The translations under genes were made by a program, and so were the position numbers. Under the pieces are notes generated by a model. The model ran no database searches. It had not been told where the DNA came from and saw only the letters and a list, made by a program, of their open reading frames with translations. From NCBI GenBank assembly GCA_016203115.1, contig JACQNJ010000019.1, forward strand, positions 724 through 64,723: 64,000 nt of DNA, in the 5' to 3' direction. Position 1 is the first letter of the stretch, and every line of letters begins with the position of its first letter. Of this stretch, positions 5,929 to 62,066 are shown piece by piece. Origin of the DNA: Candidatus Woesearchaeota archaeon. Its GTDB lineage: Archaea > Nanobdellota > Nanobdellia > SCGC-AAA011-G17 > GW2011-AR20.

Positions 5929-6015
5929 GGGAGCGTAGTACAGCCCGGTTTAGTATTGCCGGCTCCAGTGTTTTGGAGTCACCGGTAGACGCAGGTTCAA
6001 ATCCTGCCGTTCCCA
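5929..6015 (+). tRNA. tRNA-Trp (CCA) with a 12-nt intron at 37/38
   Basis: Acceptor stem GGGAGCG/CGTTCCC with discriminator A73. D-stem GTAC/GTAT. Anticodon stem GCCGG/CCGGT. Loop CTCCAG[TGTTTTGGAGTC]A; the intron TGGAG pairs with exon CTCCA (BHB-like). T-arm GCAGG-TTCAAAT-CCTGC. No encoded CCA. Confidence 0.85.
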
Positions 6016-7149: not shown

Positions 7150-7165
7150 TTAGGGGGAAATAAAA

Positions 7166-8143
7166 ATGAAAAGTATGAGATATATTTTAGCAGTTTTGAC
7201 TGCAGCATCACACGCTCTAGCTACTCCAGAAGTCATAGGAAATCAATTTCGATTATTCAATCAAGAAGGAGTGAGATTTGTAGCTGAAGATATAAGCAGG
7301 GTATTGGCTACAAGATATAATGGTAGTCCTGCAAAGATATCAGAAGAACTACAAAGTTACCTCTTAGGAAGTTTAGCCCAGTTAAAACCAACAAAAAGTC
7401 CATTAGAAACAGTTTTATGGCAATTTTCTATCGAAGGACAATCAGGGAGTTCAGACTCTTTGAATGTAGGTCTAAACGCAGCAATTCAAGACAGCACTGT
7501 GCTAACTACTAAAGCTAGGTTAGGTATACATCCAGACACAACTCTTGTTGAGAGAACAACAACCGATACAATTAAAGAAACAAGATATGCTGAAAAACCA
7601 GAAACTTCTCCTCTCTCAATAACAGGAGTTAGGTTTGGATTGTCATATGGCATTGTATCGCCAGAAATAGGATTAGTAATAGGAAACAGGCTAGTCGTAT
7701 CCGGTTCTCCTTATAATCTGCCAAGTTCAAGGAACCCAGAAGCAGTAACAACATACACATCTCAAGATCCTGTTCTAGGAACAAGATATGAAACATCAGC
7801 AGATACAAATAGAGTGGCAACACGCATAAAAAGCTTGTCAATGGGAGTGCTAATCCCAATTAAAGATTTAGAACTCACAGTAGGAGGAGGAATCCACTGG
7901 GAAGAAAAAGAAGTAAGAGGATATGCAAAAACACAAAAAGTAGACAGAAATGATGTTCCATTAATTCACGCACAAGCAAGAGAAGGACCATTTAATTCAA
8001 GAAAAAGTTCTAGAAACCCAATGGGAAATCTAGGACTGGATTACAAGATAAAGGAAAAAAATGCTATGGGATTCTATTACCAAAGAGTGCTAGGAAATAA
8101 TGGAAAAAATGGAGCAGGAGTAAACTACAGGAGAACTTTCTAA
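7166..8143 (+). CDS. secreted hypothetical protein (325 aa) with a signal peptide
   Basis: Signal peptide MKSMRYILAVLTAASHALA. S/T/G/R-rich and K-poor. Ends ...GVNYRRTF. Confidence 0.6.
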   Translation: MKSMRYILAVLTAASHALATPEVIGNQFRLFNQEGVRFVAEDISRVLATRYNGSPAKISEELQSYLLGSLAQLKPTKSPLETVLWQFSIEGQSGSSDSLNVGLNAAIQDSTVLTTKARLGIHPDTTLVERTTTDTIKETRYAEKPETSPLSITGVRFGLSYGIVSPEIGLVIGNRLVVSGSPYNLPSSRNPEAVTTYTSQDPVLGTRYETSADTNRVATRIKSLSMGVLIPIKDLELTVGGGIHWEEKEVRGYAKTQKVDRNDVPLIHAQAREGPFNSRKSSRNPMGNLGLDYKIKEKNAMGFYYQRVLGNNGKNGAGVNYRRTF

Positions 8144-8146
8144 AAA

Positions 8147-10048
8147 ATGAAAAAACTAATTTTGTTCTTGGTTTTATTTGTAGCGTTATTAAGTATTAAT
8201 ATATCTGCATTCCCAGAACTGGAAGATGCTAGATGGGCAAAAAACTACGAGAGCTCAGTAACAATAAGAAACGGCGAAACAGCTTCTTTATTTTATACAA
8301 TCTCTTCATCTAATGCTCCAGTATTAGTATCAATATATTTAACAGACAACAGAGACCATCCTTTAAGTCATATACTTACACAAGAAATAACAGAAGAAGA
8401 TTTCAATAAGCAGGGTTATATTTACAGCAATGGAGAGTTAAAGTTGGGTTATACAAGTGGCTTGATAAATATAGAGCCTAACAATTATGATCTAAAAGAG
8501 GGCAATTACAACATACAAATTGAGATAAAAGATGAAAAGAACAATGAGAGAAACAGTATATTAGCTCTAGAGTTGGTTGTAGCAGAATCAACAGGCAACA
8601 AGTTACCAACAGCAGTAATAAGCGTATTCCCTTCTAAGACAGTTGTAATTGGCACACCTGTAACAGTATCAGGATTAGATTCTTATGATGAAGATGGTTC
8701 AGTAGAAGAATACGAATGGCTCCAATTTTCAGGAAATGAGGAATTTTCATTCGATCCAAAAGCACCTGCAATTATAGTTACTCCAACTAAAGAAGGGTAT
8801 TTCTCATTTATATTAAAAGTTATAGATAATGAAGGATTAAAAAGCTCAATAAGTTTAGAAGAAGTCAAAGTAGTAAAAGAAGTTGTTGAAGAGAATGAAG
8901 CACCAATAGCCAATGCAGGCCAGGATCAAAAGGTCGAAGCAAATTCACTAGTAACATTAGATGGTTCATTATCATCCGATCCTGAGGGGGATCAGATAAC
9001 ATACCTATGGAAGCAGGTAAATGGCGAAGGTGTTGTATTATCAGGAATAACAACGCAAAATCCACAGTTCTTAGCATCTGAAGTAGGAGTCTATAATTTT
9101 GAACTAACAGTAGCAGACAGTAGAGGAGCAAGCAGCACAGACCAAGTAACTATTACAGTAGTTAGTGCAAGCAACATTAACCCAGTAGCTCTATTCAATA
9201 TCCCATCAGAAGCAAAAGTAAATGAACCAGTAACATTTGATGCCTCACCTTCATATGACCAAGATGGTTCAATAGTTGAATACAAGTGGGAAACAGATGG
9301 CAACACTCTTTTCGATAAGATAGCAAGCTATGTTTACACAACCACAAAAGAATTCATTGTAAAGCTTACAGTAAAGGACAATAAAGGTGCTGTTTCAACA
9401 TTAGAAAAGACAATTAGCATAAGAGAAGAGATTAATCCTGAAGAGAACAAAGCTCCAATAGCAAACGCAGGAAACGATCAAACAGTAAAAATTAATAATA
9501 TAGTAACATTAGACGGTTCTTTGTCTTATGACCCTGATGGAGACGGGATTTCCTATAGCTGGATTCAAACAGAAGGCCCACTAGTAAATTTATTGGGCTC
9601 AGCAACTAAGAACCCAAGGTTCACAGCAGAAACCATGGGAAGGTACAAATTCTCTTTAACAGTAATTGATGACAAAGGAAAAGAAAGCCTGCCAGATGAG
9701 GTGATTACTCTCGTATTAGAAGATGGTCAAGTTCCCCCTCAAGAAGAAGTTTCAAGAGAAATTCATAAATTTACGATCACATCAGCATTTGCCCAAGAAA
9801 AAGACAATAGGTTAGATGTATATGCAAAGATAAAAAACAGGGGCAACAACAGAGAGAATATAATAATGACAGTAACAGTTTTGCCTACAGGAGAATATTC
9901 ATCAGCTAGAACAGTTGCAGGCATAAAAGAAAACAGTTATGAGGTCGTCTCAGTAAACAAACCTCAAGAATCTGGTGATTATATCATAAAAATAGATGTA
10001 AGCAACAGGAGAGACCGTGATGTTTATTATCTCCCAGTAGAGATTTAA
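8147..10048 (+). CDS. secreted PKD-repeat surface protein
   Basis: Signal peptide, then at least four PKD-like repeats, e.g. APIANAGQDQKVEANSLVTLDGSLSSDPEGDQITYLWKQ and APIANAGNDQTVKINNIVTLDGSLSYDPDGDGISYSWIQ. Confidence 0.7.
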   Translation: MKKLILFLVLFVALLSINISAFPELEDARWAKNYESSVTIRNGETASLFYTISSSNAPVLVSIYLTDNRDHPLSHILTQEITEEDFNKQGYIYSNGELKLGYTSGLINIEPNNYDLKEGNYNIQIEIKDEKNNERNSILALELVVAESTGNKLPTAVISVFPSKTVVIGTPVTVSGLDSYDEDGSVEEYEWLQFSGNEEFSFDPKAPAIIVTPTKEGYFSFILKVIDNEGLKSSISLEEVKVVKEVVEENEAPIANAGQDQKVEANSLVTLDGSLSSDPEGDQITYLWKQVNGEGVVLSGITTQNPQFLASEVGVYNFELTVADSRGASSTDQVTITVVSASNINPVALFNIPSEAKVNEPVTFDASPSYDQDGSIVEYKWETDGNTLFDKIASYVYTTTKEFIVKLTVKDNKGAVSTLEKTISIREEINPEENKAPIANAGNDQTVKINNIVTLDGSLSYDPDGDGISYSWIQTEGPLVNLLGSATKNPRFTAETMGRYKFSLTVIDDKGKESLPDEVITLVLEDGQVPPQEEVSREIHKFTITSAFAQEKDNRLDVYAKIKNRGNNRENIIMTVTVLPTGEYSSARTVAGIKENSYEVVSVNKPQESGDYIIKIDVSNRRDRDVYYLPVEI

Positions 10049-10129
10049 ATATCACCGAAAAGTTTATATAGGCTTTCATGACTACAAAATAATAACAAAA
10101 TCCACGATTATTAGGGGGTTGGAAATAAA

Positions 10130-11449
10130 ATGAAAAAGTTACTAAACATGATATTGGCGTTTTTTGTAGTTCTAAGTGCATTGCCATTAGTAAATGCGCA
10201 AGCAAGTGAACTATCATTCGCAGAGATAGAAGTTGAAGGAACTTCTGTAGTGTTGAATGACGAAATAATGAGTATTGCTATAGTAAAGGATTTGACAGAA
10301 AGCAGAGAAACATCTTTGCCTATAAGAGTAAGATTAACATCTACAAAAGAGTTCAAAGACTTAAAAGTTTCAGCATGGATTGGTGGATATGAATTTGGAG
10401 TCCCAAGAGCAACTTCAGATCCATTTGATATGACCACTTATAATACACAAGTTGTTAAATCTGTTGTATTAAATGTTCCATTGCCTAAAGATTTAGAATC
10501 ATCTAAAGAGTACAAATTAAATGTTGAAGCCTTCAATAACGAAATAACCATAAAGAAAGAAATAAAGTTGAATATTGAAGGAAAGAGGCATTTCGTAGAC
10601 TTATTTGATGTTGTTGTAAATCCAGGATTAAGAGTTGATGCAGGCACACCATTAATTATAAAGGCAAGGCTTGAGAATCTTGGAGACAGAGTTGAGGACA
10701 ACATAAAGGTCACAGCCAAGGCTAATCTTGTAGATAAAGAAGGAAACAGCTTTACAGTTTCTGACAGCGATTTCATAGATGAGTTAGTTCCAAGATCAGA
10801 AGAAAGGGGCGATGATGAAAGCTCAACATCAACTGATGACTTATTACTGATAATTCCCAAAAGCACAAAGCAAGGAGCCTACAAGTTATTCGTAGATGTA
10901 AACTTCAACAGGGGGACTGAAACAGTCTCAGCTGAATACGACTTGACAATAAATGGGAAGGAATCAGCAATATCAGATGCAGATATTCTAATCTCATCCT
11001 CAGAAGCAAGCAAGAGTACTCCAAAAGGTACACAAGTTGTTTACCCTGTTCAAATTGCAAATTTAGGAAAAGAAGCAAGAACTTTAATATTTGATGTTAC
11101 AGGAGTAAAAGACTGGGCAGCAGCAAGTGTTAGTCCTGCAGCCTTAACAGTTGCACCAGGCTCCACATCTGAACTATTTGTTACAGTAACAGCTACGGAA
11201 GGAGCAACTCAAGGTTCGCACATCTTTGCACTTAAGGTTTTAGAAAACAGTGAAACTGTAAAGGAGCTTAATTTGCAAGGGCAAGTAGTTGGAATAACAC
11301 AAAGCACAACAAGCGAGTTCAGGAAAGGATTAGAAATGGCTTTCCTTGTGCTATTAGGCCTATTAATCATTCTTGGAATTGTAGTTGCAATCAGAAAAGC
11401 TACAATGAAGAGTGAAACTGAAGAGGCTAAAGGGGAAACTTATTACTAA
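10130..11449 (+). CDS. secreted surface protein with a C-terminal TM anchor
   Basis: Signal peptide. C-terminal hydrophobic helix followed by RKAT. S-layer or adhesin-like architecture. Confidence 0.65.
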   Translation: MKKLLNMILAFFVVLSALPLVNAQASELSFAEIEVEGTSVVLNDEIMSIAIVKDLTESRETSLPIRVRLTSTKEFKDLKVSAWIGGYEFGVPRATSDPFDMTTYNTQVVKSVVLNVPLPKDLESSKEYKLNVEAFNNEITIKKEIKLNIEGKRHFVDLFDVVVNPGLRVDAGTPLIIKARLENLGDRVEDNIKVTAKANLVDKEGNSFTVSDSDFIDELVPRSEERGDDESSTSTDDLLLIIPKSTKQGAYKLFVDVNFNRGTETVSAEYDLTINGKESAISDADILISSSEASKSTPKGTQVVYPVQIANLGKEARTLIFDVTGVKDWAAASVSPAALTVAPGSTSELFVTVTATEGATQGSHIFALKVLENSETVKELNLQGQVVGITQSTTSEFRKGLEMAFLVLLGLLIILGIVVAIRKATMKSETEEAKGETYY

Positions 11450-11501
11450 ATACCGAGAATAGACGGTATTTAATAGAGGTTTATCCTCTTATTTTTTTCT
11501 T
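11450..11501 (+). terminator. terminator-like hairpins plus oligo-T
   Basis: Inverted repeat ATACCG-N8-CGGTAT, then AGAGG-ttat-CCTCT, then TATTTTTTTCTT. Begins right after the stop of the 10130 gene. Confidence 0.35.
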
Positions 11502-11537
11502 AAAATTTTTAAAGCCTCCGAATGGAAGGATATTAAA

Positions 11538-11777
11538 ATGAAAGAAGAAGAAAAACGAATAGATGTGTTGGAAGTCCTTGCTATGGGAGCAGCTAGTGGT
11601 GTTGATGATCCTAGAAGGGGATTAATAGGACATGCTGAAAGATTGAGTAAAAGGATTCCTGCTTTCAACCCTTCTGAACTTCCTGAATATCAAAAGGTAC
11701 TTGATGCCTTAGTGGAATATAGACAAGCCGTCATTAGAAAACTTGTTGAAATACAAGAAGGCGGCTATACCCTATAA
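11538..11777 (+). CDS. hypothetical protein (79 aa)
   Basis: ORF only. Confidence 0.4.
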   Translation: MKEEEKRIDVLEVLAMGAASGVDDPRRGLIGHAERLSKRIPAFNPSELPEYQKVLDALVEYRQAVIRKLVEIQEGGYTL

Positions 11778-11992
11778 GCACTCTTTAGATAGGGAGTGTT
11801 GAAATAAGTGAAGAAATAGCTGTTTACTTATTTAAGTATTTATTACTAAGTTTCTTTATTTTTTTCTTTTTTAATATTCTAAGGGATATAGCTAAAATTA
11901 CATAATAGTGAAACAATATATTTTCTACTACAATAAAGTATATATATGGTTTCAACTTTCGAGAGTAATAACAAAATGGAAGGGATTTTGAT

Positions 11993-14443
11993 ATGAACAA
12001 GAGGGGAAAAGAAATAATTATTTTATTAATCTTAATTATCCTTCTAGCGCCTAATCTAAATGCAGAATTTACACCAACAACAGAAGAAACAGCAAAGACA
12101 GTATGCCAAGGCACAACAAGCGTTTTCACAGCATTTGTTGAGGGTTCTGGAAACATTAATATAAATAAAGAAGGAACAGCTAGCTCTTTCACTACCATTG
12201 TCCCATCAGGTTTAGTTCTTAATCTAAATAAAAAACCAGTGTTCCTATATGTCACTCCAAGTTCAAAAGTGCAGCCAGGAGCTTATAATCTTGATCTAAA
12301 GATTAACGACGGCTCATTGGAAAAGATTTTGCCATTAAATGTGAATGTAAAGGATTGCACAACATTTGAAATATCAGGTAAAACAGAAAAAGAAGTATGT
12401 GGTTGTGAATCCCAGCAGTTTGAATTCGAAATAAAAAACACAGGAATATACCAAGAAACATATGCTCTGTCAATAAAAGGAGAGGCTAAAGACTTTGTGG
12501 AGTTAAATAAAAATGAAATAAATCTAAATCCAAATAAATCCACGAAGATTATAGCAACAGTAAAAGCCCCTTGTAATAGCCTCGGAATAAAAGGATTTTC
12601 GTTAAATGTAGAATCAAAAACAAGCAACTCAGTTGCCTCAATAGACAGCAGTATAAAAATCAACAATTGCTTTGACTATAATGCAATAGCAAGTACAGAG
12701 TTAGTTGAGATATGTGAGCACACAAAAGAAGAAATAAAGATCACAATAGAAAACACAGCAGATAAAAGCAATAGTTATAGCCTAAAAATAATAGGACCTG
12801 CATGGGCAAATTTAGAAAAAAAAGAGATTATAGTAAATCCAAAGGATAGTGAGGCAGTAAATCTTGTCTTAACACCAGATTACAAAACTAAAGGAAGTTT
12901 TGATATTGAACTAAGGTTAGAAGATGTAAATGGAAAAATAAGAAAAGATAAGGTAATTAAGGCAAATATAAAAAAATGCCATGATGCTTCGCTCAGCATC
13001 ATAAGCCCAATAGAGACAGTATGTCAGTCAATCCCAAGAGAAGTTCCTGTATTCATAAAAAACACAGGGGAGTTTGATAAAACATTTGGGCTGGACTCAG
13101 ATACTGAATGGGCGTCAGTATCTGAGAAAAGATTAATTATAGATGCGTCTGATGAAAAAGAGACAGCATTAAAGTTATCTCCAAATGAAGAAATCAAGCC
13201 AGGAAAATATCCTGTAACATTAAAGCTCTCCTCCTTAGATGAAAGTAATATAATAAAAGAAGACACAATAGAAGTGGATGTAATCACAGTAAATGATTGT
13301 TATCAGCCATCTATCACGACAGAAAATACAATAGAAGTAGCTACAGACAACACCGCAACATCTGCCTTGACAATAACAAATAACGGAAAAGAAAAAGCAG
13401 ATTACGAGCTTTCTGTGACAGGTACAGCCTCAAGTTTCGTGCAGTTGAATCCAAGCATAATCACAATTGATCCAAAAAAATCAGAAGTTGTTCAATTATA
13501 TATCGCACCTACAACAAGAATAGAAAAAGGAGATTACACAGTTAAACTAACAATAAAAGAAAAAGGCTCTGACATCCTTGAAGAAAAAGATATAACTATT
13601 AGTGTGAAAGAAGAATCTAAAATAAAAAAAGTAGAAATTGAAGATAGTAACAATAAGATAACAGGAAAACTTTCTGGATTGTTTGGACCTAGAGAAGAAT
13701 CAAAGAAATTAAAAGAGTTTAAGCAGGAAACAATAGTGAGAGAATCAACTGAATTCCAGTTAAAAGGAGAAGTCCATAACCTTTCTATTGAAGAAATAAA
13801 GGAAAATTCAGTCACATTAAAAATAAGCTCTGATCCAGTAATAGTAGTTCTATTCCTAAATGACGCCAAAGAAGTGGATATAGACAACAATGGTGTCGCT
13901 GATTTAAGGTTGACCTTAGATTCAATTGAAAATGGAGTCCCAATAATAAAAGTTATAGAGATAAATGCACAGGCAATTGAAGAAGCAAGTGGACCAGGAT
14001 TTTTCTCGAAATACAGAACATGGATTATAGGGGCAATAGTAGTAATAATCTTGATTGTCCTAGCGAGTGTCTTCTTGTCTGAAGATGAAGAGGAAAAGGA
14101 AGTAAAAGAAGGTACTGAAGAAGAAAAAATTAAAGTTGGCAGGTATGTCCTAGCAGTTATTGCTATAGGGGTAATAGCCTGGCTATTAAGTAGATATGGC
14201 TTATTAGCATCTGTAGATTTGTATAAGTATTATATTATAATTGGGTTATTAGTTCTATTAATCCTTGTAGTAATAATAAAGTACTGGGAAGAAATTTCTT
14301 CATTTTTTGAAGAAGAATACGAAGAGGAAAAGAAAGAAGAAGCTCTCCAGGAGAAAAAAGAAAAGGCAATAAAAAAAGAAGAAAAAGATTTAGTAAAGAA
14401 AGAGACTAAAGAAGTGAAAGAAAAGAAAGTAGTCAAAAAGTAA
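11993..14443 (+). CDS. large secreted surface protein with C-terminal TM helices and a K/E-rich tail
   Basis: Signal peptide and repeated roughly 100-aa beta-rich modules (e.g. ITNNGKEKADYELSVTG, IKNTGIYQETYALSIKG). Two C-terminal TM segments and a KE-rich cytoplasmic tail. Confidence 0.65.
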   Translation: MNKRGKEIIILLILIILLAPNLNAEFTPTTEETAKTVCQGTTSVFTAFVEGSGNININKEGTASSFTTIVPSGLVLNLNKKPVFLYVTPSSKVQPGAYNLDLKINDGSLEKILPLNVNVKDCTTFEISGKTEKEVCGCESQQFEFEIKNTGIYQETYALSIKGEAKDFVELNKNEINLNPNKSTKIIATVKAPCNSLGIKGFSLNVESKTSNSVASIDSSIKINNCFDYNAIASTELVEICEHTKEEIKITIENTADKSNSYSLKIIGPAWANLEKKEIIVNPKDSEAVNLVLTPDYKTKGSFDIELRLEDVNGKIRKDKVIKANIKKCHDASLSIISPIETVCQSIPREVPVFIKNTGEFDKTFGLDSDTEWASVSEKRLIIDASDEKETALKLSPNEEIKPGKYPVTLKLSSLDESNIIKEDTIEVDVITVNDCYQPSITTENTIEVATDNTATSALTITNNGKEKADYELSVTGTASSFVQLNPSIITIDPKKSEVVQLYIAPTTRIEKGDYTVKLTIKEKGSDILEEKDITISVKEESKIKKVEIEDSNNKITGKLSGLFGPREESKKLKEFKQETIVRESTEFQLKGEVHNLSIEEIKENSVTLKISSDPVIVVLFLNDAKEVDIDNNGVADLRLTLDSIENGVPIIKVIEINAQAIEEASGPGFFSKYRTWIIGAIVVIILIVLASVFLSEDEEEKEVKEGTEEEKIKVGRYVLAVIAIGVIAWLLSRYGLLASVDLYKYYIIIGLLVLLILVVIIKYWEEISSFFEEEYEEEKKEEALQEKKEKAIKKEEKDLVKKETKEVKEKKVVKK

Positions 14444-21424: not shown

Positions 21425-21510
21425 GGGCCGGTAGTTTAGTGGCTATAACGACGCCCTTACAATTTAGATGAGAAAGGCGTAGGTCGCATGTTCGAATCAT
21501 GCCCGGCCCA
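21425..21510 (+). tRNA. tRNA-Val (UAC) with a ~13-nt intron
   Basis: Acceptor stem GGGCCGG/CCGGCCC with discriminator A. Anticodon stem ACGCC/GGCGT. Loop CTTACA[ATTTAGATGAGAA]A. T-arm GCATG-TTCGAAT-CATGC. Confidence 0.8.
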
Positions 21511-27763: not shown

Positions 27764-27876
27764 GGGCTTGTAGTTTAATCTGGATAGAATAATCGGCTTC
27801 GGAAAGAAGGAGCAATGAGATGAGCAAATCTTCTTGTGGATACCGATTGATTGGGGTTCAAATCCTCACAGGCCCG
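27764..27876 (+). tRNA. tRNA-Arg (UCG) with a ~39-nt intron
   Basis: Acceptor stem GGGCTTG/CAGGCCC with discriminator G. Anticodon stem ATCGG/CCGAT. Loop CTTCGG[39 nt containing AAGAAG...CTTCTT hairpin]A. T-arm TGGGG-TTCAAAT-CCTCA. Confidence 0.7.
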
Positions 27877-41936: not shown

Positions 41937-42206
41937 TTAAGAAGCCTTCTTTAAAGCCTTTTCTATAGCTGATTTGTCAAATCCCAAGATTGTTTCTTTC
42001 CCAATAACAATAACAGGAACTCCAGTTTGCCCTGTCAATTCAATTATTTCTTTGATTGCATTAGGATTTTTAGTTACATCAATCTCGGTATATTTTGCCT
42101 TTTTCTCTTTAAGCAGCTCTTTGGTCTTATGGCAGTATTGACACATCGGTGAAGTAAATAACCTTATCATCTTAAAAAATAAAAAATTATGCGGATAATT
42201 CCGCAT
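41937..42206 (-). CDS. glutaredoxin
   Basis: CQYC active site and the GxxGVPVIVIG motif. Confidence 0.7.
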   Translation of the reverse strand: MRNYPHNFLFFKMIRLFTSPMCQYCHKTKELLKEKKAKYTEIDVTKNPNAIKEIIELTGQTGVPVIVIGKETILGFDKSAIEKALKKAS

Positions 42207-42903
42207 CTATTACTTGTTTGAAAGCGCTAAAAGGCTGGGCTCCAACCAATATCTTCCCATTAATGAAGAAAGTTGGTGTTCCAGATGCTCCATAAGCACT
42301 AGCATCACTTAAATCCTTTTGAATTTCGCTTTTATACTTCCCATCTTTCATGCACTTGTCAAATTTATCAGCATCCAGTCCAACTTCTTTAGCCCAAGTG
42401 CTCAATATCTCATTGCTCAGCAAACCTTGATTGTCAAAAATCTTGTCATGGTATTCCCAAAATTTGCCCTGCTCATTTGCACATTCAGAAGCTTCTGCAG
42501 CAGGCATTGCATATTCGTGGAAGCTCAAAGGTAAATGTCTAAAAGCCAATTTAACCTTTCCCGTGTCAATATATTCTTTCTGTAGAGAAGGTAAAGTTTG
42601 CTCATAAAATCTACCGCAGAATGGACATTGAAAATCACTAAACTCGATTATGGTGACTTTAGCATCCTTATCTCCTATCACAGGAGCACCATCATATTTC
42701 ACATCCTGTCTTATATTAGGATTAACCTCTCCTGGAGGAGCACTAGGCAAAGGTGCAGCAGGTGCAACAACAGCACCAGTTCCTTCATTAGTTCCTAAGC
42801 CAAATCCTCCTGTAAACAAAGAAACAACAAACAAAACTCCAAAAATTCCAGTTAATAATTTCCAAATCGTAATTTTCTTTACCTGAAAAGATTCATCTTC
42901 CAT
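42187..42903 (-). CDS. DsbA-like thiol:disulfide oxidoreductase, membrane-anchored
   Basis: N-terminal TM. CPFC active site in a thioredoxin fold. Confidence 0.75.
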   Translation of the reverse strand: MEDESFQVKKITIWKLLTGIFGVLFVVSLFTGGFGLGTNEGTGAVVAPAAPLPSAPPGEVNPNIRQDVKYDGAPVIGDKDAKVTIIEFSDFQCPFCGRFYEQTLPSLQKEYIDTGKVKLAFRHLPLSFHEYAMPAAEASECANEQGKFWEYHDKIFDNQGLLSNEILSTWAKEVGLDADKFDKCMKDGKYKSEIQKDLSDASAYGASGTPTFFINGKILVGAQPFSAFKQVIDAELSA

Positions 42904-42956
42904 GCCTAAAACCCCCTTAAAAGCTATAAATTAACAATCGTTTAAAAAACTTTCCT

Positions 42957-43700
42957 TTAACTTTTTTGTATAGCACTAGCAGCTAAATAAGACAAGAATG
43001 CAGGCAATAAAGGCAAGACACAAGGACTCAAGAAAGACCCTAATCCTGCAATAAAAGAAACAGGCAAAGTCAATGTTCCGAGTCCTCCTGTCTGGGCATC
43101 TAATTTCAAAAGCAATTCTGTAAGGATTGGCAAATTCGCAATCCTGCTAAGTTTGTTTGTAAAAACAAGAACTCCTAATACTATTAATAAAACTCCAAAA
43201 ACATAATTAACATAAGTAAGCCACTTTCCCGCTTTAGAAATAAAAGCAGCTGCTTTTCCAGTAAATGCTCCAACTATCAGAAAAGGAATTCCTAATCCTA
43301 AAGAATAAGCTAATAATAAACCAAAAGCATTTCCTGGATTGCTAACAGCCAAAGTCAAGATTGCCCCTAAAACAGCCCCAACACAAGGAGTCCATCCAAC
43401 AGCAAAAGCAGCCCCAAAAATAAAGGAAGTTACATAAGCATATTTGAATTTTCTCTTAACTCTTAGTTTATGCTCCCTTTCTAAAAAAGGAATTTTAACT
43501 ATCCTTAACAAATACAATCCAAATAAAATAATTATAGCTCCTCCTATATACCCTAACCAAGCCTGAACAGTCACAGAAACATTAGCTAGTAATCCTTGCA
43601 ATAATACACCAACCAAAGAAAACACAATAGCAAATCCTAGAACAAAAAAAACGCTATTGAGAAAGATATCCAATTGTCTTATTTCAGGCTCTTTTTTCAT
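42957..43700 (-). CDS. ccdA: CcdA/DsbD-family transmembrane thiol-disulfide electron transporter
   Basis: Six TM segments. Conserved Cys in WTPCVGAVLG and LSPCVLPLLP. Confidence 0.8.
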   Translation of the reverse strand: MKKEPEIRQLDIFLNSVFFVLGFAIVFSLVGVLLQGLLANVSVTVQAWLGYIGGAIIILFGLYLLRIVKIPFLEREHKLRVKRKFKYAYVTSFIFGAAFAVGWTPCVGAVLGAILTLAVSNPGNAFGLLLAYSLGLGIPFLIVGAFTGKAAAFISKAGKWLTYVNYVFGVLLIVLGVLVFTNKLSRIANLPILTELLLKLDAQTGGLGTLTLPVSFIAGLGSFLSPCVLPLLPAFLSYLAASAIQKS

Positions 43701-44179
43701 AGTAAGGAATTAACAATCTTTTCTTTAAGCTTATCTTTATTTAAGCTTTCCAAAGTTCTAAAAAGCTCTTTTTCATTGCTATCAACAATAACTTTTGTAT
43801 GCTGATAAGTTACGCCGAATTTCTTGGCCAATGCTTTCTCATTTTCATCAGTTTGATCATCATTGTAATTAACCTCTAAAGCAACTAAGTCTTCTCCGCT
43901 TATCCCTTTTAAAGCATTGACTATATCAGGCCTTTCCATTTTGCATATTGGGCACCAGTTGGCATAAAAATTCAAGAATACAAACTTGCCTTCATTTAAA
44001 GCGGTTTCATAAGCTTCTTTGGTATAAGATTGATAGGCAACACCTGAAACATCAGCGTTTTCACCAATAATATTTTCTTGCAATTCCTGGGATTTCTCAG
44101 ACTCAAATTGTTGATTGCATCCCACAACAAAAACCAGTAAAAATAAAATTAAGAATATACCTCTTTTCATAAAAATCAA
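43697..44179 (-). CDS. TlpA/ResA-like secreted thioredoxin
   Basis: Signal or lipoprotein-like N-terminus (LFLLVFVVGC). WCPIC active site. Confidence 0.7.
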   Translation of the reverse strand: MIFMKRGIFLILFLLVFVVGCNQQFESEKSQELQENIIGENADVSGVAYQSYTKEAYETALNEGKFVFLNFYANWCPICKMERPDIVNALKGISGEDLVALEVNYNDDQTDENEKALAKKFGVTYQHTKVIVDSNEKELFRTLESLNKDKLKEKIVNSLL

Positions 44180-44207
44180 AGTTAACAGCTGTTTAAATAG
44201 TTTATCT

Positions 44208-44561
44208 TTAAAAAAATCTTCTTTTGATCTGATGAGTATCTACAGTTTCTTCATGCAGATGATGATCACAGCCAGCACCAGTTTTCACATCCAATTTTGC
44301 ACTAATTGATTTAACTAAATTATTTTTAAGTAAATATTCCTCAACTTCATCACCGCTGACATCAGCTAGCATCTTTCCATTAATCTCCACACAAGGAGAC
44401 AAAGGTTGCCCGCTTTTCATGACCATGTCATTATAATTCTCTTCAATATTCACAACATCAATATCTTCATAATTCAAGTGATATTTTCCTAAAATAGCCC
44501 TGACTCCGTTGCTCCACCCGCAGCTTGGTTTCAAATAAGCTTTGATTTTTAATTCTACCAT
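44208..44561 (-). CDS. glutaredoxin-like protein (CxxS)
   Basis: SCGWS motif in a Grx/ArsC-like fold. His-rich C-terminus. Confidence 0.5.
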   Translation of the reverse strand: MVELKIKAYLKPSCGWSNGVRAILGKYHLNYEDIDVVNIEENYNDMVMKSGQPLSPCVEINGKMLADVSGDEVEEYLLKNNLVKSISAKLDVKTGAGCDHHLHEETVDTHQIKRRFF

Positions 44562-44865
44562 GTTTTTGTACTAAATTTAGGTATTTAAAAGATTTGCTGT
44601 CTACCCTCAAAATCGAGTATTTTTTAAATATTCAAAGGATTGCTAAAGGCATGGAAAGAAATAGAAGCTGGAAAATGTAAAAAAAAGGGAAGTGAAGAAT
44701 TCTTAAAAAATTTTCCTGTATCTACATAGCTTTAGAGATTTCTTGTATTAGCCTATTAAAAGAGATTCTATTACTAATGTTTTTTATATTGTTTTTATTT
44801 TTATAAGCCTATTCCCAAAATGTCTTTCAATTAACTTTTTAAATAATCAAATCATTTTAAATGCC

Positions 44866-46935
44866 ATGAAAAGAGGTGTAGTTTTAATATTCTTATTAGT
44901 TCTATTTTCAATAATCCTAGTTACACAATCTGAAGCAGTTTTTATCCAATCAGCCATATCCCCAATTTATGTAGGAGAAACAGATACCTTATTAAAAACA
45001 GGAACAACAGACTCAGTAAACTGGGAAATTTTGACACCCTCTATTTGCAAATTTTACGGCACTGATATTTTTACTAATAACCAAATTCGCTCTTACCCGA
45101 AAGGTCTAAGTGCTGGAACATGCTCTGTCAGAGTAACAACAGTAATTGCACCAACAGAAACAGCAACATTTGACTTTCAAGTTTTAGCAGCTGCAGCTCC
45201 AATCCCTGCTTCTTTAAGTTCCTGCTCAGTTGTACCTCAATGTATAGAAGGCTTAGGGAAAAAAACATTAGCTTCAGTTTCTGGCACTACAGATGCACAT
45301 GTATCACGCGATATCAATAGATTTCCTTACAAGTTATGCTGCGATGGAGAATCATTAAGCAGATCTTGTATTCCAACTCAGCCTCAGAAAGCAGATGTTG
45401 CCTACATTTACCTCACGGATGATTCTCATGTAGACCCAAATGGGCAGCCAGAATCAATATGCTTGTCAGTAAGAGACCAATCAAGCATTTCCTGCAGATT
45501 TAGCAATACCGGCTGTACCGCTAGTGAAACTTGTTTATTATCTTTATATCAGACCACAGATTCACATGTAGCAGATTGTAACGCCCTATCAACTCAAACC
45601 AAAATCTGCTGCTCTATAACTCAGGCTAAGACATGCTATAATCAGGGAGAAGCTAGATCTGATTCAGATAGTTTGCAATGCTGTGTAACAGATCCAGTTA
45701 CAGGAAGTGATTTGTATTATTCAAAAGAAGTTGATACAGATATCACTGGTGGATGTTGTGTGAAAGTAGATGAAGCATGGAACTCCTTTACAGGAAGATG
45801 TGAACCCACACAAGCAACTCTTTGCAACCCAACATGCCCATATGATCCAACAAACCCAAGTTATTGGACAACAGCTGGATGTTTTAGGGATTTACCAACA
45901 CCACCGCCTTACGAAGATGCATGTTGCACTGAAACACTTTTTGGTGTCACAGATAAATTCCAAATTCCAATAGAAGTAACAACAGACGCAAATGGCAAAT
46001 GCACAGGAGCTAAATTCTGCTCTTCAACAACCAAATTATGTTCATCAACACTAGACAGTTTTTGTCCAGAAAATTATGGAGATTGGTCTTCCTGTCCTTT
46101 AAATGAAGTTGGCAATAGATGCAGCATTTGCGACCCAGATTGCGGAACTTGTGGAAGTACAAGTTTTTCCCAGTTAAAAGATCCAGCCTCCCAGAATGAG
46201 CAGTTAACAATTAAGGTAGAATATAATGTTCCAATTGTAAAAGAAATTACTTTATGGAGAGTAATTTCAGGAACTGATTATTACATAAGCACTGCAAACT
46301 GCCAAGTTCAAGGAAGTGTTTGTACAGCAACATTTTCTCCGGGTTCAGTTTCACCAGGAGTAGTCCAATATCTAACAACGCCATCAAGCCCAGGCTCGCC
46401 TTACTCATTTAAGTCATCTTTATCAGTAGCCCCTGACATCATCATAACTAAAACAGGTTATACATTGCCAAGAGTAGAAATACAAGCTCCATTATCAGGC
46501 TCAACTTTAAGTGGGACAGTAAATATCCGGGCAAGAGCACAAAGTGATTCAAGCATCAGTAACATAAAATGGTATATTGAAAAGAAATCCTCTGGAGCAA
46601 ATATGCCACCATCATATTCACCAGTAAATATAATTAATAATCAAGGTTCATGCACTTTCTGTGACGCTTTAGGCTGTAATTTGCTTGGCTCAGCCTCCTA
46701 TTCGCCAAATCCTCCAAACACGAATGTAGTATCCACAAAAAGCTTTAATACTTTGAAATGCGACAATAATGATTTCATGTTGAAAGTAATAGCAGAAGAT
46801 CAGAGAGGGAACAAGGCAGAAGCTTCTATTCCTGTAAGAACAAGCAACACAAATGCCCCTTGCACAGATAATTGCCCTGCATATGATTCAACAATATTAA
46901 AGATAGTAATAGCCAAGGTTAAGACATGGATATGA
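44866..46935 (+). CDS. large secreted cysteine-rich protein (689 aa, about 40 Cys)
   Basis: Signal peptide. Numerous CC and CxC motifs. No TM anchor. Confidence 0.7.
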   Translation: MKRGVVLIFLLVLFSIILVTQSEAVFIQSAISPIYVGETDTLLKTGTTDSVNWEILTPSICKFYGTDIFTNNQIRSYPKGLSAGTCSVRVTTVIAPTETATFDFQVLAAAAPIPASLSSCSVVPQCIEGLGKKTLASVSGTTDAHVSRDINRFPYKLCCDGESLSRSCIPTQPQKADVAYIYLTDDSHVDPNGQPESICLSVRDQSSISCRFSNTGCTASETCLLSLYQTTDSHVADCNALSTQTKICCSITQAKTCYNQGEARSDSDSLQCCVTDPVTGSDLYYSKEVDTDITGGCCVKVDEAWNSFTGRCEPTQATLCNPTCPYDPTNPSYWTTAGCFRDLPTPPPYEDACCTETLFGVTDKFQIPIEVTTDANGKCTGAKFCSSTTKLCSSTLDSFCPENYGDWSSCPLNEVGNRCSICDPDCGTCGSTSFSQLKDPASQNEQLTIKVEYNVPIVKEITLWRVISGTDYYISTANCQVQGSVCTATFSPGSVSPGVVQYLTTPSSPGSPYSFKSSLSVAPDIIITKTGYTLPRVEIQAPLSGSTLSGTVNIRARAQSDSSISNIKWYIEKKSSGANMPPSYSPVNIINNQGSCTFCDALGCNLLGSASYSPNPPNTNVVSTKSFNTLKCDNNDFMLKVIAEDQRGNKAEASIPVRTSNTNAPCTDNCPAYDSTILKIVIAKVKTWI

Positions 46936-51644: not shown

Positions 51645-52253
51645 TTAATATTTAAGCCTATTTTTTATAAGGCAAATCAGGCTAATCAGCAAAAACAAGG
51701 AGAAAACAGTTGCGATTATTCTCAAAAATATATCATAAAACAGGTTATAAGTATAAATATTGACAATATTCTCCCCTACACCAAATATCCATGAATTCTC
51801 TTCAAAAAAGACTTCATGAAACAGAGTGAATAGGAAGTTATAGTCTAAAAAAGTCAAAAGAATAAGAATTAATAAAAGTAATAAACCAGAAAGCCCAGAT
51901 AATAAAAATAGCTTGTCTAATGAATTTTTAAAAAAATAAATAAAAATAATTAAAGCAAGAAAAGAAGCAAATAGAAGGATATATCCTATGAGGAATAAAA
52001 TCCTGACATCTCTCAAATGCTCTTTCTCTTTTTCATTAAAAAAATCAGTTTCTAAATTATTTTTAAAAAGGAAGTAGCCAAATACCTCAGAGTTCACATT
52101 ATCAACTTCATCTTTTCCAAAAGTTGCATAAGCTCCATTTTCTTCAAATTTATCAGAGTAAAATCCCTTGTTAAAAATATGGACTAAAGAGCTAAAGAGG
52201 ATAATAAATAAAATAAAAGATACAATAAATAAAACTTTAAAATATTTTTTCAT
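51645..52253 (-). CDS. hypothetical polytopic membrane protein
   Basis: 202 aa, F/L/I-rich. Overlaps the upstream gene by 17 nt. Confidence 0.5.
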   Translation of the reverse strand: MKKYFKVLFIVSFILFIILFSSLVHIFNKGFYSDKFEENGAYATFGKDEVDNVNSEVFGYFLFKNNLETDFFNEKEKEHLRDVRILFLIGYILLFASFLALIIFIYFFKNSLDKLFLLSGLSGLLLLLILILLTFLDYNFLFTLFHEVFFEENSWIFGVGENIVNIYTYNLFYDIFLRIIATVFSLFLLISLICLIKNRLKY

Positions 52254-58666: not shown

Positions 58667-58751
58667 TGCGCGAGCCGAGATTCGAACTCGGGCCACTGCC
58701 TCTTTGCATAAGCATGGCAAGGCAATATAATAACCACTATACTACTCGCGC
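58667..58751 (-). tRNA. tRNA-Gly (GCC) with a 13-nt intron at 37/38
   Basis: Reverse complement GCGCGAG-TA-GTAT-AGTGGTTA-TTAT-A-TTGCC-TTGCCA[TGCTTATGCAAAG]A-GGCAG-TGGC-CCGAG-TTCGAAT-CTCGG-CTCGCGC-A. The D-loop is the classic AGUGGUUA. Confidence 0.75.
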
Positions 58752-58808: not shown

Positions 58809-60539
58809 CTAACAAGTAGAATAACATCCTTGTCCAGGTCTCCAGCACTTGCCAGAAGCTACACAACAATCATAATCTGATCCAGCCGCACAGTTCGCTT
58901 GACAAATTCCATCAGATGTAGCTGAACATGTTCCAAAGGTTAAACCGGAAGCATAACACCCGTAGCCATCATACCAAGTTTTACCAGAAGCAACACAACA
59001 GTCATAATCAGAACCAGCAGCACAACTAGATTGACAAATTCCATCAGATGTAGCTAAACACTGCCCTACAGTTGAACCTGCAGGATAACAGCCATATCCT
59101 TGATACCACACCTTACCAGAAGATGTACAGCAATCATAATCTGATCCAGCCGCACAAGTATTAGGGCATTGATAATCCGCATAATCATAACAAACTCCAG
59201 AATTCGGATAAGTAATGCTTGTATTTGAAAGTGAAGTAGTATTTCCAGAGGGTTGAGTAGTATTTCCTGAAGTGCCATTAGATAATTGACCACCCCCACC
59301 AGTATTATTGGCTGTAAGCAAAACACATCTATCAGTAGAATTATCTCTTCCATACCCCGGTTTACAAGCCCAGCAAGAATATACAGCCGAATTACAAGTG
59401 TAGTCAGTCCTTACAATTGTATTTGAATCATAAAGAGTATTGTAATTGTTTACCCTACAACCCACCCAAGGATATAAGTTAAATAAGTTCATAGCAGGAC
59501 AAGGAGGAACAGCAAGTTGATCTTTACATGTACCATTAATATATATGTTACAGCTAAAATAAGTATTCCTGACAAGACCATTTGGCGCGCAAGAATACTC
59601 AAGATTATTATTGTCAGTACTGCTCCCATAAGCGCATCTTGTAAGGCCTAATGGGCTGTCACAAACATTACTTGTAACTGTTCCCTTGGAAAAGTAATTC
59701 ATTCCGCTTGGGCTATTGTAGTAATCTGCTCCCCTATCATCACTATCATAACATCTTGAAACATTTGTAGGACAATCTCCAGAACAAGAGCTAGCCTCGT
59801 TTAACTCACAAAAACCATTTCCACACACAGGGGTTTTATAAGGATCAGATTCATCATTATCTGCAATATTTGCACAACCTAGATCAGTTGGATAATCTAT
59901 TTTGCCATCCCAGTCATTGTCTAAACCATTACCACAAGACATACCTGTTATATTGTATTCTTGTGTTTGATTATCTCCACCTTGAGTCTGGTTAGTTTCT
60001 CCTCCTGTTTGATTTTCTCCTCCTTGAGGTTGGTTATTTCCTCCTGTCTCATTCCCATGATTCTGAGATTGAGAACCTTCACCACTAACTTCTCCAGAAC
60101 AAGTTCCAACAAGATTTGTTCCATCTCCTGTATAAGTATAATTCGCACCAGTATTCAAATCAGTATAGCCTATAAGTACCTCATACTCATAGTTTTGCCC
60201 TAAAACACAACTTCCAACATCATAAGTCAGCACCATAGTATTTCCAGGAGATAGGGTAGCATCCTCCACAGGAACATCAACAGAATTAATCTTGACATTA
60301 TCTAACTTAACAGGAGAATCTAAATTATTTTTTAAAACAAAAGTATCATTTCCAACAGAAGTAACAGCATAATTCTTAAATCCAACTAGCGCCTTAGTAT
60401 TCCAAAAAAGTTTGCTTGTCTTGACAGAAGCATTTTCACCTACTCCAGGCAACCCACCCAAAGCTGCAACAACAATCAATGCAACAACAATAACAACACC
60501 TAGAATAATTAAATACTCAGTAGAAGTTTGACCCTTCAT
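58809..60539 (-). CDS. large Cys-rich surface protein with an archaeal class III (type IV pilin-like) signal peptide
   Basis: N-terminus MKGQTSTEYLIILGVVIVVALIVVAAL matches a prepilin-peptidase-type signal (KG|Q ... E+5). G/N/Q/T low-complexity linker. Three C-terminal tandem repeats, CAAGSDYDCCxxSGKxWYxGYGCY...TSDGICQ. Confidence 0.7.
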   Translation of the reverse strand: MKGQTSTEYLIILGVVIVVALIVVAALGGLPGVGENASVKTSKLFWNTKALVGFKNYAVTSVGNDTFVLKNNLDSPVKLDNVKINSVDVPVEDATLSPGNTMVLTYDVGSCVLGQNYEYEVLIGYTDLNTGANYTYTGDGTNLVGTCSGEVSGEGSQSQNHGNETGGNNQPQGGENQTGGETNQTQGGDNQTQEYNITGMSCGNGLDNDWDGKIDYPTDLGCANIADNDESDPYKTPVCGNGFCELNEASSCSGDCPTNVSRCYDSDDRGADYYNSPSGMNYFSKGTVTSNVCDSPLGLTRCAYGSSTDNNNLEYSCAPNGLVRNTYFSCNIYINGTCKDQLAVPPCPAMNLFNLYPWVGCRVNNYNTLYDSNTIVRTDYTCNSAVYSCWACKPGYGRDNSTDRCVLLTANNTGGGGQLSNGTSGNTTQPSGNTTSLSNTSITYPNSGVCYDYADYQCPNTCAAGSDYDCCTSSGKVWYQGYGCYPAGSTVGQCLATSDGICQSSCAAGSDYDCCVASGKTWYDGYGCYASGLTFGTCSATSDGICQANCAAGSDYDCCVASGKCWRPGQGCYSTC

Positions 60540-60704: not shown

Positions 60705-62066
60705 ATGATATATGATCTAGTAATTCTAGGTGGAGGAAGCGCAGGATATAGCGCAGCCATGACTGCATTAAAGTTCAAAAAGAAAGTTTGCATAATAGAA
60801 AAAGGTCCTTTTGGGGGCTTATGCATTCTAAAAGGTTGTATGCCTTCTAAAACATTAATTTATTCTGCAAGAATCAATGAAATAATAAAAAAATCAAAAA
60901 CATTTGGAATAGATATTAAAGGAAAAATAAACATAGACCCAGCCAGCATAATAAACAGAAAAAACAAAATCATTCAGGGATTCGCAGACTACAGAAAAAA
61001 TATTATAAAAAATAAAAGAGATATAAATTTAATATACGGAGAGGCAAAATTCATCTCAAAAAATGAAGTAGAAGTTAATAAAAGAGTAATAAAAGGAAAA
61101 AATTTCTTGATTTCTACAGGAAGCAAAGAATCAATACCGCCAATACTTGGACTAAAAGAAACAGGATATATAATTAGTGATGAAGCCCTAGAATTAAAAA
61201 AATTTCCAAAAAGCTTAGCAATATTGGGTGGAGGTCCTGTAGCAATTGAACTAGGTTATTATTTCAATGGGTTAGGAGTAAAAACAGCAATCATCCAGAG
61301 AAGCGAGCAAATCCTAAGCAATAATGATTTAGATTGTGCAAAAGAATTAGAAAATGCATTAAAGAATAAAGGAATTTCAATTTACACAAACACTTCAATA
61401 AAAAGTTTTTCAAAAAGCAATAAAGGAAAGAAAATAATTTTTGACCACAATAAACAAGAAAAAGAAATAATAGCCGATGAAATCTTAGTGGCATTTGGAA
61501 GAAAACCAAATTTAGAAGGATTAAATGTTGAAAAAGCAGGCATAAAACCAGAAAAAGGGCTAATAAAAAATAGCAATTATCTAGAAACAAACACAAAAAA
61601 TATTTACATTGCAGGAGATTCAAGTGCTAATTTAGCAGTTGTAAATGTAGCAGTTGAAGAAGGCAGAGTAGCAGCAACAAACATGTTTTCAAAAAATAAA
61701 GAAAAAATAGACTATAGTGCATTTCCAATGGCAGTCTTCTCTCATCCAGAATTTGCATGGATTGGTTTATCAGAAAAAGAGGCTGAGGAAAAAAAGATTA
61801 ATGTAAAGATAGGTAAGTTTTATTTCAAGGATTTAGGGAAAGCAGAATGCATAGACGAAACAGAAGGATTCATAAAATTCATAGCAGATAAAAAAACAAA
61901 TAAGATTTTAGGAGTAAGCATCGTAGGTCATGAAGCTTCTGACTTAATTCATGAAGCCATACCTTTACTATACTTCAAAGCAACATTAGATGACTTGAAA
62001 AAAATGCCCCATTTACATCCTACATTTGGAGAAATCTACAGCTATTTAGTAGATGAAATGATATGA
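60705..62066 (+). CDS. pyridine nucleotide-disulfide oxidoreductase (lipoamide dehydrogenase/glutathione reductase family)
   Basis: FAD-binding GGGSAG, redox-active GGLCILKGCMPSK, C-terminal HPTFGE dimerisation motif. Confidence 0.8.
   Translation: MIYDLVILGGGSAGYSAAMTALKFKKKVCIIEKGPFGGLCILKGCMPSKTLIYSARINEIIKKSKTFGIDIKGKINIDPASIINRKNKIIQGFADYRKNIIKNKRDINLIYGEAKFISKNEVEVNKRVIKGKNFLISTGSKESIPPILGLKETGYIISDEALELKKFPKSLAILGGGPVAIELGYYFNGLGVKTAIIQRSEQILSNNDLDCAKELENALKNKGISIYTNTSIKSFSKSNKGKKIIFDHNKQEKEIIADEILVAFGRKPNLEGLNVEKAGIKPEKGLIKNSNYLETNTKNIYIAGDSSANLAVVNVAVEEGRVAATNMFSKNKEKIDYSAFPMAVFSHPEFAWIGLSEKEAEEKKINVKIGKFYFKDLGKAECIDETEGFIKFIADKKTNKILGVSIVGHEASDLIHEAIPLLYFKATLDDLKKMPHLHPTFGEIYSYLVDEMI

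Follow-up and report, generated by a model that had tools for sequence, protein, structure and literature searches.

The stretch of DNA analysed here (hereafter the window) comprises 64,000 nucleotides from Candidatus Woesearchaeota archaeon (assembly GCA_016203115.1, contig JACQNJ010000019.1, positions 724 to 64,723 of the forward strand) and is AT-rich, with a GC content of 33%. Towards its right-hand end the reverse strand encodes a 576-residue protein identical to HY500_02645, an NCBI hypothetical protein of Candidatus Woesearchaeota archaeon on an 88.9-kb contig, and this name is used for it below. An earlier note, made by a model from the sequence alone, had proposed a 'giant' pilin-like adhesin, in which a pilin-like N-terminus is followed by a G/N/Q/T-rich linker and three Cys-rich C-terminal repeats. 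All of these elements are present in the 576-residue open reading frame (ORF), which is large by pilin standards only and does not merit the term giant. The features of the gene, in the order of translation, are:

58809..60539, reverse strand: coding sequence of HY500_02645, 576 residues from the ATG, plus stop.
60531..60539, reverse strand: class III leader M-K-G, predicted to be cut by prepilin peptidase after Gly3 (KG↓Q), from the PF04021 match and the starts of homologues.
60450..60530, reverse strand: mature N-terminus QTSTEYLIILGVVIVVALIVVAALGGL, hydrophobic α1 helix with Gln+1 and Glu+5, from hydropathy, family conservation and the AlphaFold2 model (helix 6–27).
60096..60449, reverse strand: globular β-sandwich domain of the pilin module, residues 31–148, with the conserved Cys111–Cys147 pair.
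59946..60095, reverse strand: linker 1, residues 149–198, starting where the stand-alone pilins end; G/N/Q/T/E-rich, with 5 N-x-S/T sequons, and encoded by a 21/42-nt tandem repeat (Tandem Repeats Finder, TRF).
59844..59936, reverse strand: CGNGLDNDWDGKIDYPTDLGCANIADNDESD, residues 202–232, a calcium-loop-like Cx(N/D)GxDNDxDGxxDYPxDxGC motif, from homology search.
59772..59825, reverse strand: CGNGFCELNEASSCSGDC, residues 239–256, of CGxGxC...E...C..DC type, aligning to repeated copies in the related protein P0055.
59319..59771, reverse strand: Cys-rich middle region, residues 257–407, with 12 Cys and no detectable homologue.
59199..59318, reverse strand: linker 2, residues 408–447, N/T/S/G-rich, with 6 N-x-S/T sequons, from the sequence.
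59085..59192, reverse strand: six-Cys module, copy 1, residues 450–485.
58953..59060, reverse strand: six-Cys module, copy 2, residues 494–529.
58812..58928, reverse strand: six-Cys module, copy 3 (residues 538–573) with the C-terminal cap, to residue 576; an 8-Cys variant, GKCWRPGQGCYSTC-COOH.

The ATG (MKGQ) is likely the start of HY500_02645, because its homologues begin MRGQ, MRKGQ or MQKKGQ. An upstream Met, raised as a possible true start that would remove the leader, is not found; the only upstream alternative is an in-frame GTG at 60572, which would add 11 residues and retain the KG↓Q site. By hydropathy, residues 5–35 form the sole hydrophobic segment, all 40 Cys lie past residue 110, and 11 of the 16 N-x-S/T sequons fall within the two low-complexity linkers. 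Scans of the whole protein against Pfam and NCBIfam returned the signal peptide only, with an NCBIfam holin_4 match dismissed as weak (E=0.12), whilst sequence searches of the PDB had no significant match (A2 with the DUF4352 filament 8q30_A, E=0.15; HY500_02645 with LLG1, E=0.11). Full-length homology searching was swamped by the DNDxDG motif and the low-complexity linkers, such that region-specific searches were needed.

The N-terminus reads MKG↓QTSTEYLIILGVVIVVALIVVAALGG, placing Lys at −2, Gly at −1, Gln at +1 and Glu at +5. The archaeal processing rule consists of a charged residue at −2 and G, A or S at −1, followed by a hydrophobic stretch, and EppA-type substrates are marked by Gln+1 together with Glu+5 (PMC4371748); HY500_02645 thus carries both the leader (M-K-G↓Q) and the mature N-terminal residues expected of the EppA/Epd type. 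The Pfam family Class_IIIsignal (PF04021; curated gathering cut-off 23.7 bits) matches residues 2–23, with E=0.002 and 18.5 bits on the whole protein and E=3.3e-4 and 20.9 bits on its first 150 residues, and it is matched by all eight members of the pilin family described below. No second class III-like N-terminus was found in a six-frame motif scan of the window.

A search with residues 1–150 retrieved eight proteins, seven of which are 147–149 residues long and align over 98–99% of the query with 59–63% identity (E=1e-47 to 1e-50); one homologue is annotated as 'class III signal peptide-containing protein [Candidatus Woesearchaeota archaeon]'. In an alignment of eight pilin-family members with overall identities of 61–63%, 26 of the 27 positions from G3 to G29 are invariant, including Q4 and E8 of the precursor (mature +1 and +5), as are C111 and C147. 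The stand-alone homologues end in ...GTCAN, at which point HY500_02645 runs on as ...GTCSGEVSGEG. The AlphaFold2 model of this region consists of a helix plus a β-sandwich, with an α1 helix of at least 20 residues preceding the β-rich domain. On this sequence evidence, residues 1–148 are taken to be a complete pilin of a small Woesearchaeotal family, which goes beyond a mere signal peptide. The class III / type IV pilin signal proposed in the earlier note is therefore borne out, with a full pilin domain behind it that is homologous to the first gene of pilus operons. Nor does the hydrophobic segment, with its near-invariant G3–G29 stretch, resemble an ordinary Sec signal or transmembrane anchor; it is similar to a pilin α1 helix. 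Archaellin identity was rejected, as neither HY500_02645 nor its homologues match Arch_flagellin, and identity as a bindosome substrate-binding protein was likewise rejected, as Pfam and NCBIfam detect no substrate-binding domain and a pilin globular domain is present instead.

The relatives of this pilin module inform on the machinery with which it may work. The homologue P0030 heads an operon found on three contigs, in which a KaiC-like ATPase comes next, and then five small proteins, a 604-residue T2SSE ATPase and two T2SSF genes. The small proteins have class III-like N-termini (MGKKGQVLVEF..., MIKGRGQLGIEL..., MLRKGQFFSVDL... and others) and are taken to be minor pilins. The full set (pilin, KaiC-like gene, five minor pilins, T2SSE ATPase and both T2SSF genes) is carried by each of the loci L001–L004, and in L005 the pilin gene adjoins a KaiC-like gene. 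The nearest NCBIfam families are FlaI/BasE for the operon ATPase and FlaJ/UpsF for the membrane proteins, all with scores under the equivalog cut-offs; an archaellum operon was rejected, the ATPase, platform and KaiC-like matches being far under the ArlI, ArlJ and ArlH cut-offs. Around archaeal type IV pilus loci, both KaiC-family ATPases and stand-alone pilin genes are often encountered (PMC4858521). System 1 (the Epd type) has been described as having split platform genes, many pilins and stand-alone pilins, as occurring in DPANN archaea, and as including proteins that combine a class III signal with a binding domain (bioRxiv 10.64898/2026.04.22.720090). We also observed a 640-residue thioredoxin-domain (DsbH-like) protein directly 3′ of the pilus operon in relatives (L001 16142-16447; L003 9723-10028); given the conserved Cys pair of the pilins, this neighbour may link disulfide chemistry with pilus biogenesis.

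Beyond the pilin module and linker 1 lies an ectodomain of distinct Cys-rich parts. The motif at residues 202–232 (CGNGLDNDWDGKIDYPTDLGC...DNDE) is widespread; it was the sole part of HY500_02645 matched in the full-length search, and it also opens the ectodomain of P0055. Homology searches with residues 257–407 detected no relative. The C-terminal repeats are built from a 36-residue six-Cys module with the spacing C-x7-C-x3-C-x7-CC-x12-C, three complete copies of which recur with a period of 44 residues; the unit begins 12 residues 5′ of the register first proposed. The copies had been called near-identical, a description that does not hold, as they are 58–81% identical to one another (21–29 of 36 residues) with many synonymous differences; TRF reports a 132-nt period at the 3′ end of the gene, with 2.3 copies, 77% identity and a score of 380. 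HY500_02645 conforms to the family pattern C-x7-C-x3-C-x2-G-[ST]-D-x-D-C-C-x(10-14)-W-x(3-6)-G-C-[YF], in which C1, C9, C13, D18, D20, C21, C22, G34 and C35 are invariant, and the module profile scores the three copies at 51–56 bits each (E=2.3e-37 overall). Copy 3 has two extra cysteines (C565 and C576), with STC following the module and the protein terminating in CWRPGQGCYSTC; the same 8-Cys variant terminates P0036, P0042 and P0055.

A search with residues 445–576 found 18 proteins sharing the 36-residue unit, and when 1.84 billion cluster representatives were searched exhaustively with an HMMER profile, only 107 matched at E<=0.001, with 1–8 copies each and lengths of 59–1498 residues. Typically, a module protein has 80–150 residues and bears the module at its tip, behind a transmembrane anchor and in some cases a coiled coil. 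The last module lies at most 5 residues from the C-terminus in 78 of 115 family proteins (3 residues in HY500_02645); a hydrophobic segment at the N-terminus is the rule amongst the 115, with some 27 lacking one, of which at least 6 are fragments. Further carriers are a 1498-residue subtilase (P0036), a PEGA protein, CARDB proteins, YHYH-like small proteins and a Nanoarchaeia protein. No model for the module was present in our local copy of Pfam-A, no match to it was found in the PDB, and it was not found in phage and viral collections. Taken with the motifs that precede it, the payload appears from these comparisons to be built from Cys-rich motifs of the type seen in DPANN archaea and bacteria of the candidate phyla radiation (CPR).

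That the Cys repeats are of a disulfide type, as first suggested, is supported in two ways. Amongst 175 parsed modules, a Cys just before the conserved Trp occurs in 45 and one immediately beyond the last core Cys also in 45, with both present in 43 (Fisher p=6e-36); such paired gain and loss is as expected of disulfide partners, and the covariation indicates that the module cysteines behave in this way. The AlphaFold2 model of the module is also confident (predicted local distance difference test, pLDDT, 93.6), and the module is probably a new fold. Two side observations concern the family. For P0016, P0017 and P0023 the source database records PF28533, an accession missing from our local Pfam copy, which may describe either these small proteins with transmembrane segment, coiled coil and six-Cys unit or the module on its own. 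P0010, P0064, P0077 and P0117 combine an N-terminal, metal-site-like 'HPG(N/R)T(A/D)..GCH.C.TNC..WG' motif with a Pro/Thr linker and one or two six-Cys modules; this subgroup (L019/L020) lies on large contigs of 92–259 kb with uninformative neighbours.

The module recurs on other pilin-type carriers. P0037 (520 residues, 6 modules), which starts ...SGFGLIELVVVAVIIG, is named a prepilin-type N-terminal cleavage/methylation protein by the Joint Genome Institute (JGI) and matches Pfam N_methyl. P0059 (4 modules, KG↓QGFMEF), which reads ...KLKRKGQGFMEFFMNYGWAVLIVIAVIG when upstream in-frame codons are counted, is an unrelated archaeal class III protein, and P0040 (KKGQIIVAVLG...) may be a third pilin-type carrier. 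The occurrence of the module on P0037 and P0059 supports the idea of a pilus-displayed payload, and, of the earlier proposal of a pilin-anchored Cys-repeat ectodomain, it is this part that gains support, both from the pilin module and from the recurrence; the further step, to an adhesin at a fibre tip by which an episymbiotic archaeon attaches to its host, is conjectural. The pilin module, in turn, is found with another payload. An 858-residue stand-alone protein at L007 5241-7817, adjoining a dCTP deaminase gene, bears MKRGQTSTEY at its start, a pilin domain with 29% identity to that of HY500_02645, and a quite different extension with repeated 'IGIGT..P...L.V.G'-type motifs. Judged by these features, the L007 protein adds a second modular pilin to this pilin family.

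The likely origin of HY500_02645 is indicated by P0055, a 514-residue protein of a related Woesearchaeote (GCA_964367555.1; L021 5001-6545). The gene for P0055 divergently adjoins that of a pyridine-nucleotide-disulfide oxidoreductase, which is 62% identical to the neighbour of HY500_02645 at 60705-62066. The two proteins therefore share a neighbour gene and its divergent orientation, as well as the start and end of the ectodomain: that of P0055 opens with GDNxT...C-x-(N/D)-x-(L/I)-DND-x-DGK followed by CG(N/D)G-x-C, colinear with HY500_02645, and closes with two modules 58% identical to the last two of HY500_02645, including the CWRAGQGCYTTC cap (CWRxGQGCYxTC). They differ in that P0055 has an ordinary hydrophobic signal or anchor at its N-terminus in place of the pilin module and linker 1, additional CGDG repeats and a CARDB domain in mid-protein, where HY500_02645 has its orphan Cys-rich region, and two modules to the three of HY500_02645. 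The upstream regions of the two genes have no detectable homology, and no tRNA was found beside P0055. As ectodomains that start and end alike occupy the same locus, replacement of a signal by a pilin is suggested, and most likely a pilin module with its linker took the place of the signal sequence of a P0055-like surface protein.

From these results, we consider it fairly probable that HY500_02645 belongs to an Epd-like pilus (system 1), as an archaeal modular type IV pilin that presents a disulfide-rich binding payload. Its layout of a pilin, a 50-residue linker and 380 residues of Cys-rich domains is that by which modular pilins have been defined structurally (PMC8179133). In the outlined mechanism, the precursor would be inserted in the membrane and cut after Gly3 by a prepilin peptidase of EppA/PibD type, and PilB/PilC-type machinery encoded elsewhere in the genome would incorporate it into a filament, which would be permitted by an α1 helix near-identical to those of the operon-encoded pilins of relatives. 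Because of its bulk, and by analogy with bacterial modular pilins (PMC8179133), it would probably sit at the filament tip or sparsely along the shaft. The sequon-rich linkers may be N-glycosylated, and the ectodomain would be oxidised by a DsbA-type system such as that encoded in the window, whose DsbA-like thioredoxin and DsbD-type membrane protein make extracytoplasmic disulfide formation plausible. The distal modules would then bind a ligand, for which a glycan or a surface polymer, of another cell or of a substrate, is the probable candidate. Binding to a glycan or envelope polymer is suggested, by analogy, by the conserved acidic G-S-D-Y-D-CC loop, the conserved W and Y, the distal position and the precedent of Saccharibacteria. 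A broader proposal is that the six-Cys module is a new-fold recognition domain, common to DPANN archaea and bacteria of CPR type, which was joined to pilins on separate occasions in the two domains of life, and that in HY500_02645 an ultrasmall archaeon turned an envelope-anchored protein, by exchange of its signal for a pilin module, into a pilus-tip adhesin with specificity for a partner or host; we put this forward as speculative and, in its entirety, unlikely.

Several observations weigh against assignment as a pilus-borne binding protein. Both PF04021 scores fall short of the gathering cut-off, and a fold search with the pilin domain was not discriminating, in that generic Ig-like and ApaG folds outscore archaeal pilins. 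Across the scanned ORFs of the window (most of those of at least 100 residues, with about 19 smaller ones left out) there is no pilus ATPase, platform protein or prepilin peptidase, which upholds the earlier statement that neither a prepilin peptidase nor a pilus ATPase lies nearby. HY500_02645 is a singleton (1 sequence on 1 contig), and a scan of JGI metagenomes with the whole protein found no close relatives. Finally, as the module has no characterised relative, the term 'binding' rests on architecture and analogy.

One alternative concerns the function of the payload, which may serve a purpose other than attachment to a partner cell, such as contact with minerals or metals, with environmental polysaccharide, or with the envelope or pili of the producing cell (in bundling or biofilm formation), or it may act solely as a stabilising cap; we regard this as possible, if doubtful. 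The module occurs on very different carriers, of bacterial and archaeal type, which points to a generic rather than a host-specific ligand, it is rich in Cys, Asp and aromatic residues, and the window shows no sign of an episymbiotic lifestyle. Conversely, the Cys covariation and the compact, confident model favour structural disulfides over thiol–metal chemistry, whilst the mostly distal, C-terminal position of the module on stalks, linkers and pilins fits outward-facing recognition, and those ultrasmall episymbionts that have been tested use type IV pili with lectin-like minor pilins towards host binding (PMC11623550).

The main rival to assembly into a pilus, and in our view a somewhat less likely alternative, is that HY500_02645 is a surface protein outside any pilus, with the pilin part acting as an anchor in the membrane or close to the cell wall, or as a short stalk similar to a pseudopilus or bindosome, and with the two linkers raising the Cys-rich payload over the envelope. 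Retention of an intact globular pilin domain with its conserved Cys pair, in which HY500_02645 differs from bindosome subunits, is difficult to reconcile with such a role, as is the near-identity of the α1 helix, which is a requirement of co-assembly and needless for an anchor; exchange of a working P0055-type signal for a pilin module also suggests selection for a different mode of display. Nonetheless, archaeal class III signals do occur on large non-pilin proteins, for example the sugar-binding proteins of the Sulfolobus bindosome (PMC4371748), P0055 shows that a similar ectodomain can be borne by an ordinary N-terminal anchor or signal, simple membrane-anchored stalk proteins make up the majority of module bearers, and the scanned ORFs include no assembly genes.

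Two further explanations bear on whether there is a pilin fusion at all. An ordinary Sec signal or transmembrane anchor at the N-terminus, with a superficial likeness to pilins, is very improbable despite the sub-threshold Class_IIIsignal score: homology (E ~1e-50) extends over the full length of proteins heading pilus operons, K−2, G−1, Q+1 and E+5 all fit the archaeal EppA-type rule, and the first 29 residues are near-invariant in the family, as pilin α1 helices are and Sec signals are not. Least credible, and by our estimate scarcely tenable, is an artefact of chimeric assembly of a metagenome-assembled genome, or a frameshift, which fused a short pilin gene to a P0055-like gene; for whilst the sequence has been seen once, on one contig, the other close members of the pilin family are all 147–154 residues long, and a relative has a P0055-like gene with its own signal at the same locus, an artefact would need two breakpoints within a 2-kb stretch between syntenic genes, the frame is open for 1,731 nt with the linker starting right behind the last conserved Cys of the pilin, GC content at third codon positions is the same in both halves (pilin part 0.20, extension 0.21) and typical of the genome, the repeats have diverged and so are not collapsed or duplicated reads, and the L007 protein is an independent extended member of the family.

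The surroundings of the gene add the following observations. At 42187-44561, on the reverse strand, genes for DsbA-like, DsbD_TM and small thioredoxin/glutaredoxin-like proteins stand beside a forward-strand gene (44866-46935), the secreted 689-residue product of which contains 42 Cys and a Big_7 domain and has no six-Cys module; together, 42187-46935 may be an oxidative-folding locus with its Cys-rich client. A second, chemically different surface set lies at 6205-14443 (forward strand), where five same-strand genes, all but the first (6205-7149) with signal-type N-termini, encode products with almost no Cys, including a 633-residue PKD-repeat protein and two FixG_C/Ig-like proteins. The reverse-strand gene at 51645-52253 is an archaeal gene matching Pfam Lit (lipoprotein intramolecular transacylase, PF07314; E=1.8e-21), a family described for lipoprotein remodelling in Firmicutes. 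Rfam identifies four tRNAs of 85–113 nt (5929-6015, 21425-21510, 27764-27876 and 58667-58751), of which ARAGORN finds only two, one with a 4-nt anticodon; these are probably intron-containing archaeal tRNAs. The tRNA-Gly(GCC) amongst them lies 57 nt downstream of HY500_02645 on the same strand.

To our knowledge, every DPANN archaeon so far cultivated depends on physical contact with a host, and the molecules by which this contact is made and specified are mostly unknown. As a pilin expected to co-assemble with an Epd-like pilus, and with a compact, confidently modelled payload, HY500_02645 is a testable candidate for such a molecule. With its 107 clusters, its range across ultrasmall lineages of archaea and bacteria and its presence on no fewer than three unrelated pilin carriers, this small module family offers a good handle on pilus ligands. 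Bacterial modular pilins and functional archaeal proteins with class III signals were already known; what the present assignment would add is the extension to archaea of a modular pilin concept so far catalogued for bacteria only, and, in the comparison with P0055, one of the clearer examples of a modular pilin arising by signal-peptide replacement. Should HY500_02645 be merely a surface-anchored glycoprotein, the finding would be ordinary.

Amongst known systems, the closest in architecture are the modular type IV pilins of bacteria, such as PilB (vWA module) and PilC (lectin module) of Streptococcus sanguinis, for which more than 1,200 InterPro architectures have been catalogued in a survey that did not extend to archaea; such pilins are proposed to polymerise via the pilin module and to be exposed at the tip, and some carry payloads of multi-copy repeats (PMC8179133). 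HY500_02645 shares with them a small N-terminal pilin module, a linker and a bulky C-terminal functional module. The bacterial proteins have an N-methylation motif (IPR012902) and are processed by PilD, whereas HY500_02645 has a class III signal (KG↓Q, PF04021) and belongs to an archaeal pilin fold family, and their vWA or lectin payloads contrast with its uncharacterised six-Cys module.

The proteins of the Sulfolobus bindosome are likewise archaeal, carry class III signals and are at least four times as large as pilins, and they use the machinery of type IV filaments to display a binding function at the surface (PMC4371748), as would HY500_02645 if its predicted display is correct. Bindosome subunits, however, are substrate-binding proteins with the signal and helix only, whereas HY500_02645 has a full pilin globular domain and no substrate-binding domain. 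The type IV pili of Saccharibacteria (CPR), which contribute to host binding, with glycan binding via lectin-like minor pilins proposed (PMC11623550), are the functional analogy behind the idea of host attachment; they are bacterial, have been studied experimentally and have pilins and domains different from those of HY500_02645.

The system most similar in its machinery is the Epd pilus of Methanococcus maripaludis and system 1 more generally. HY500_02645 and its relatives differ from it in having no sequence match to characterised Epd pilins, in ATPase and platform matches under the NCBIfam equivalog cut-offs, in the KaiC-like ATPase which follows the pilin gene in relatives, and in the location of HY500_02645 away from any such operon. 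The pilin family nonetheless shares with Epd the KGQ-type site with Gln+1 and Glu+5, the operons of the relatives share with it a single ATPase, a platform split into two genes and many pilins, and stand-alone pilins, occurrence in DPANN archaea and a class III protein with a putative binding domain are likewise common to both.

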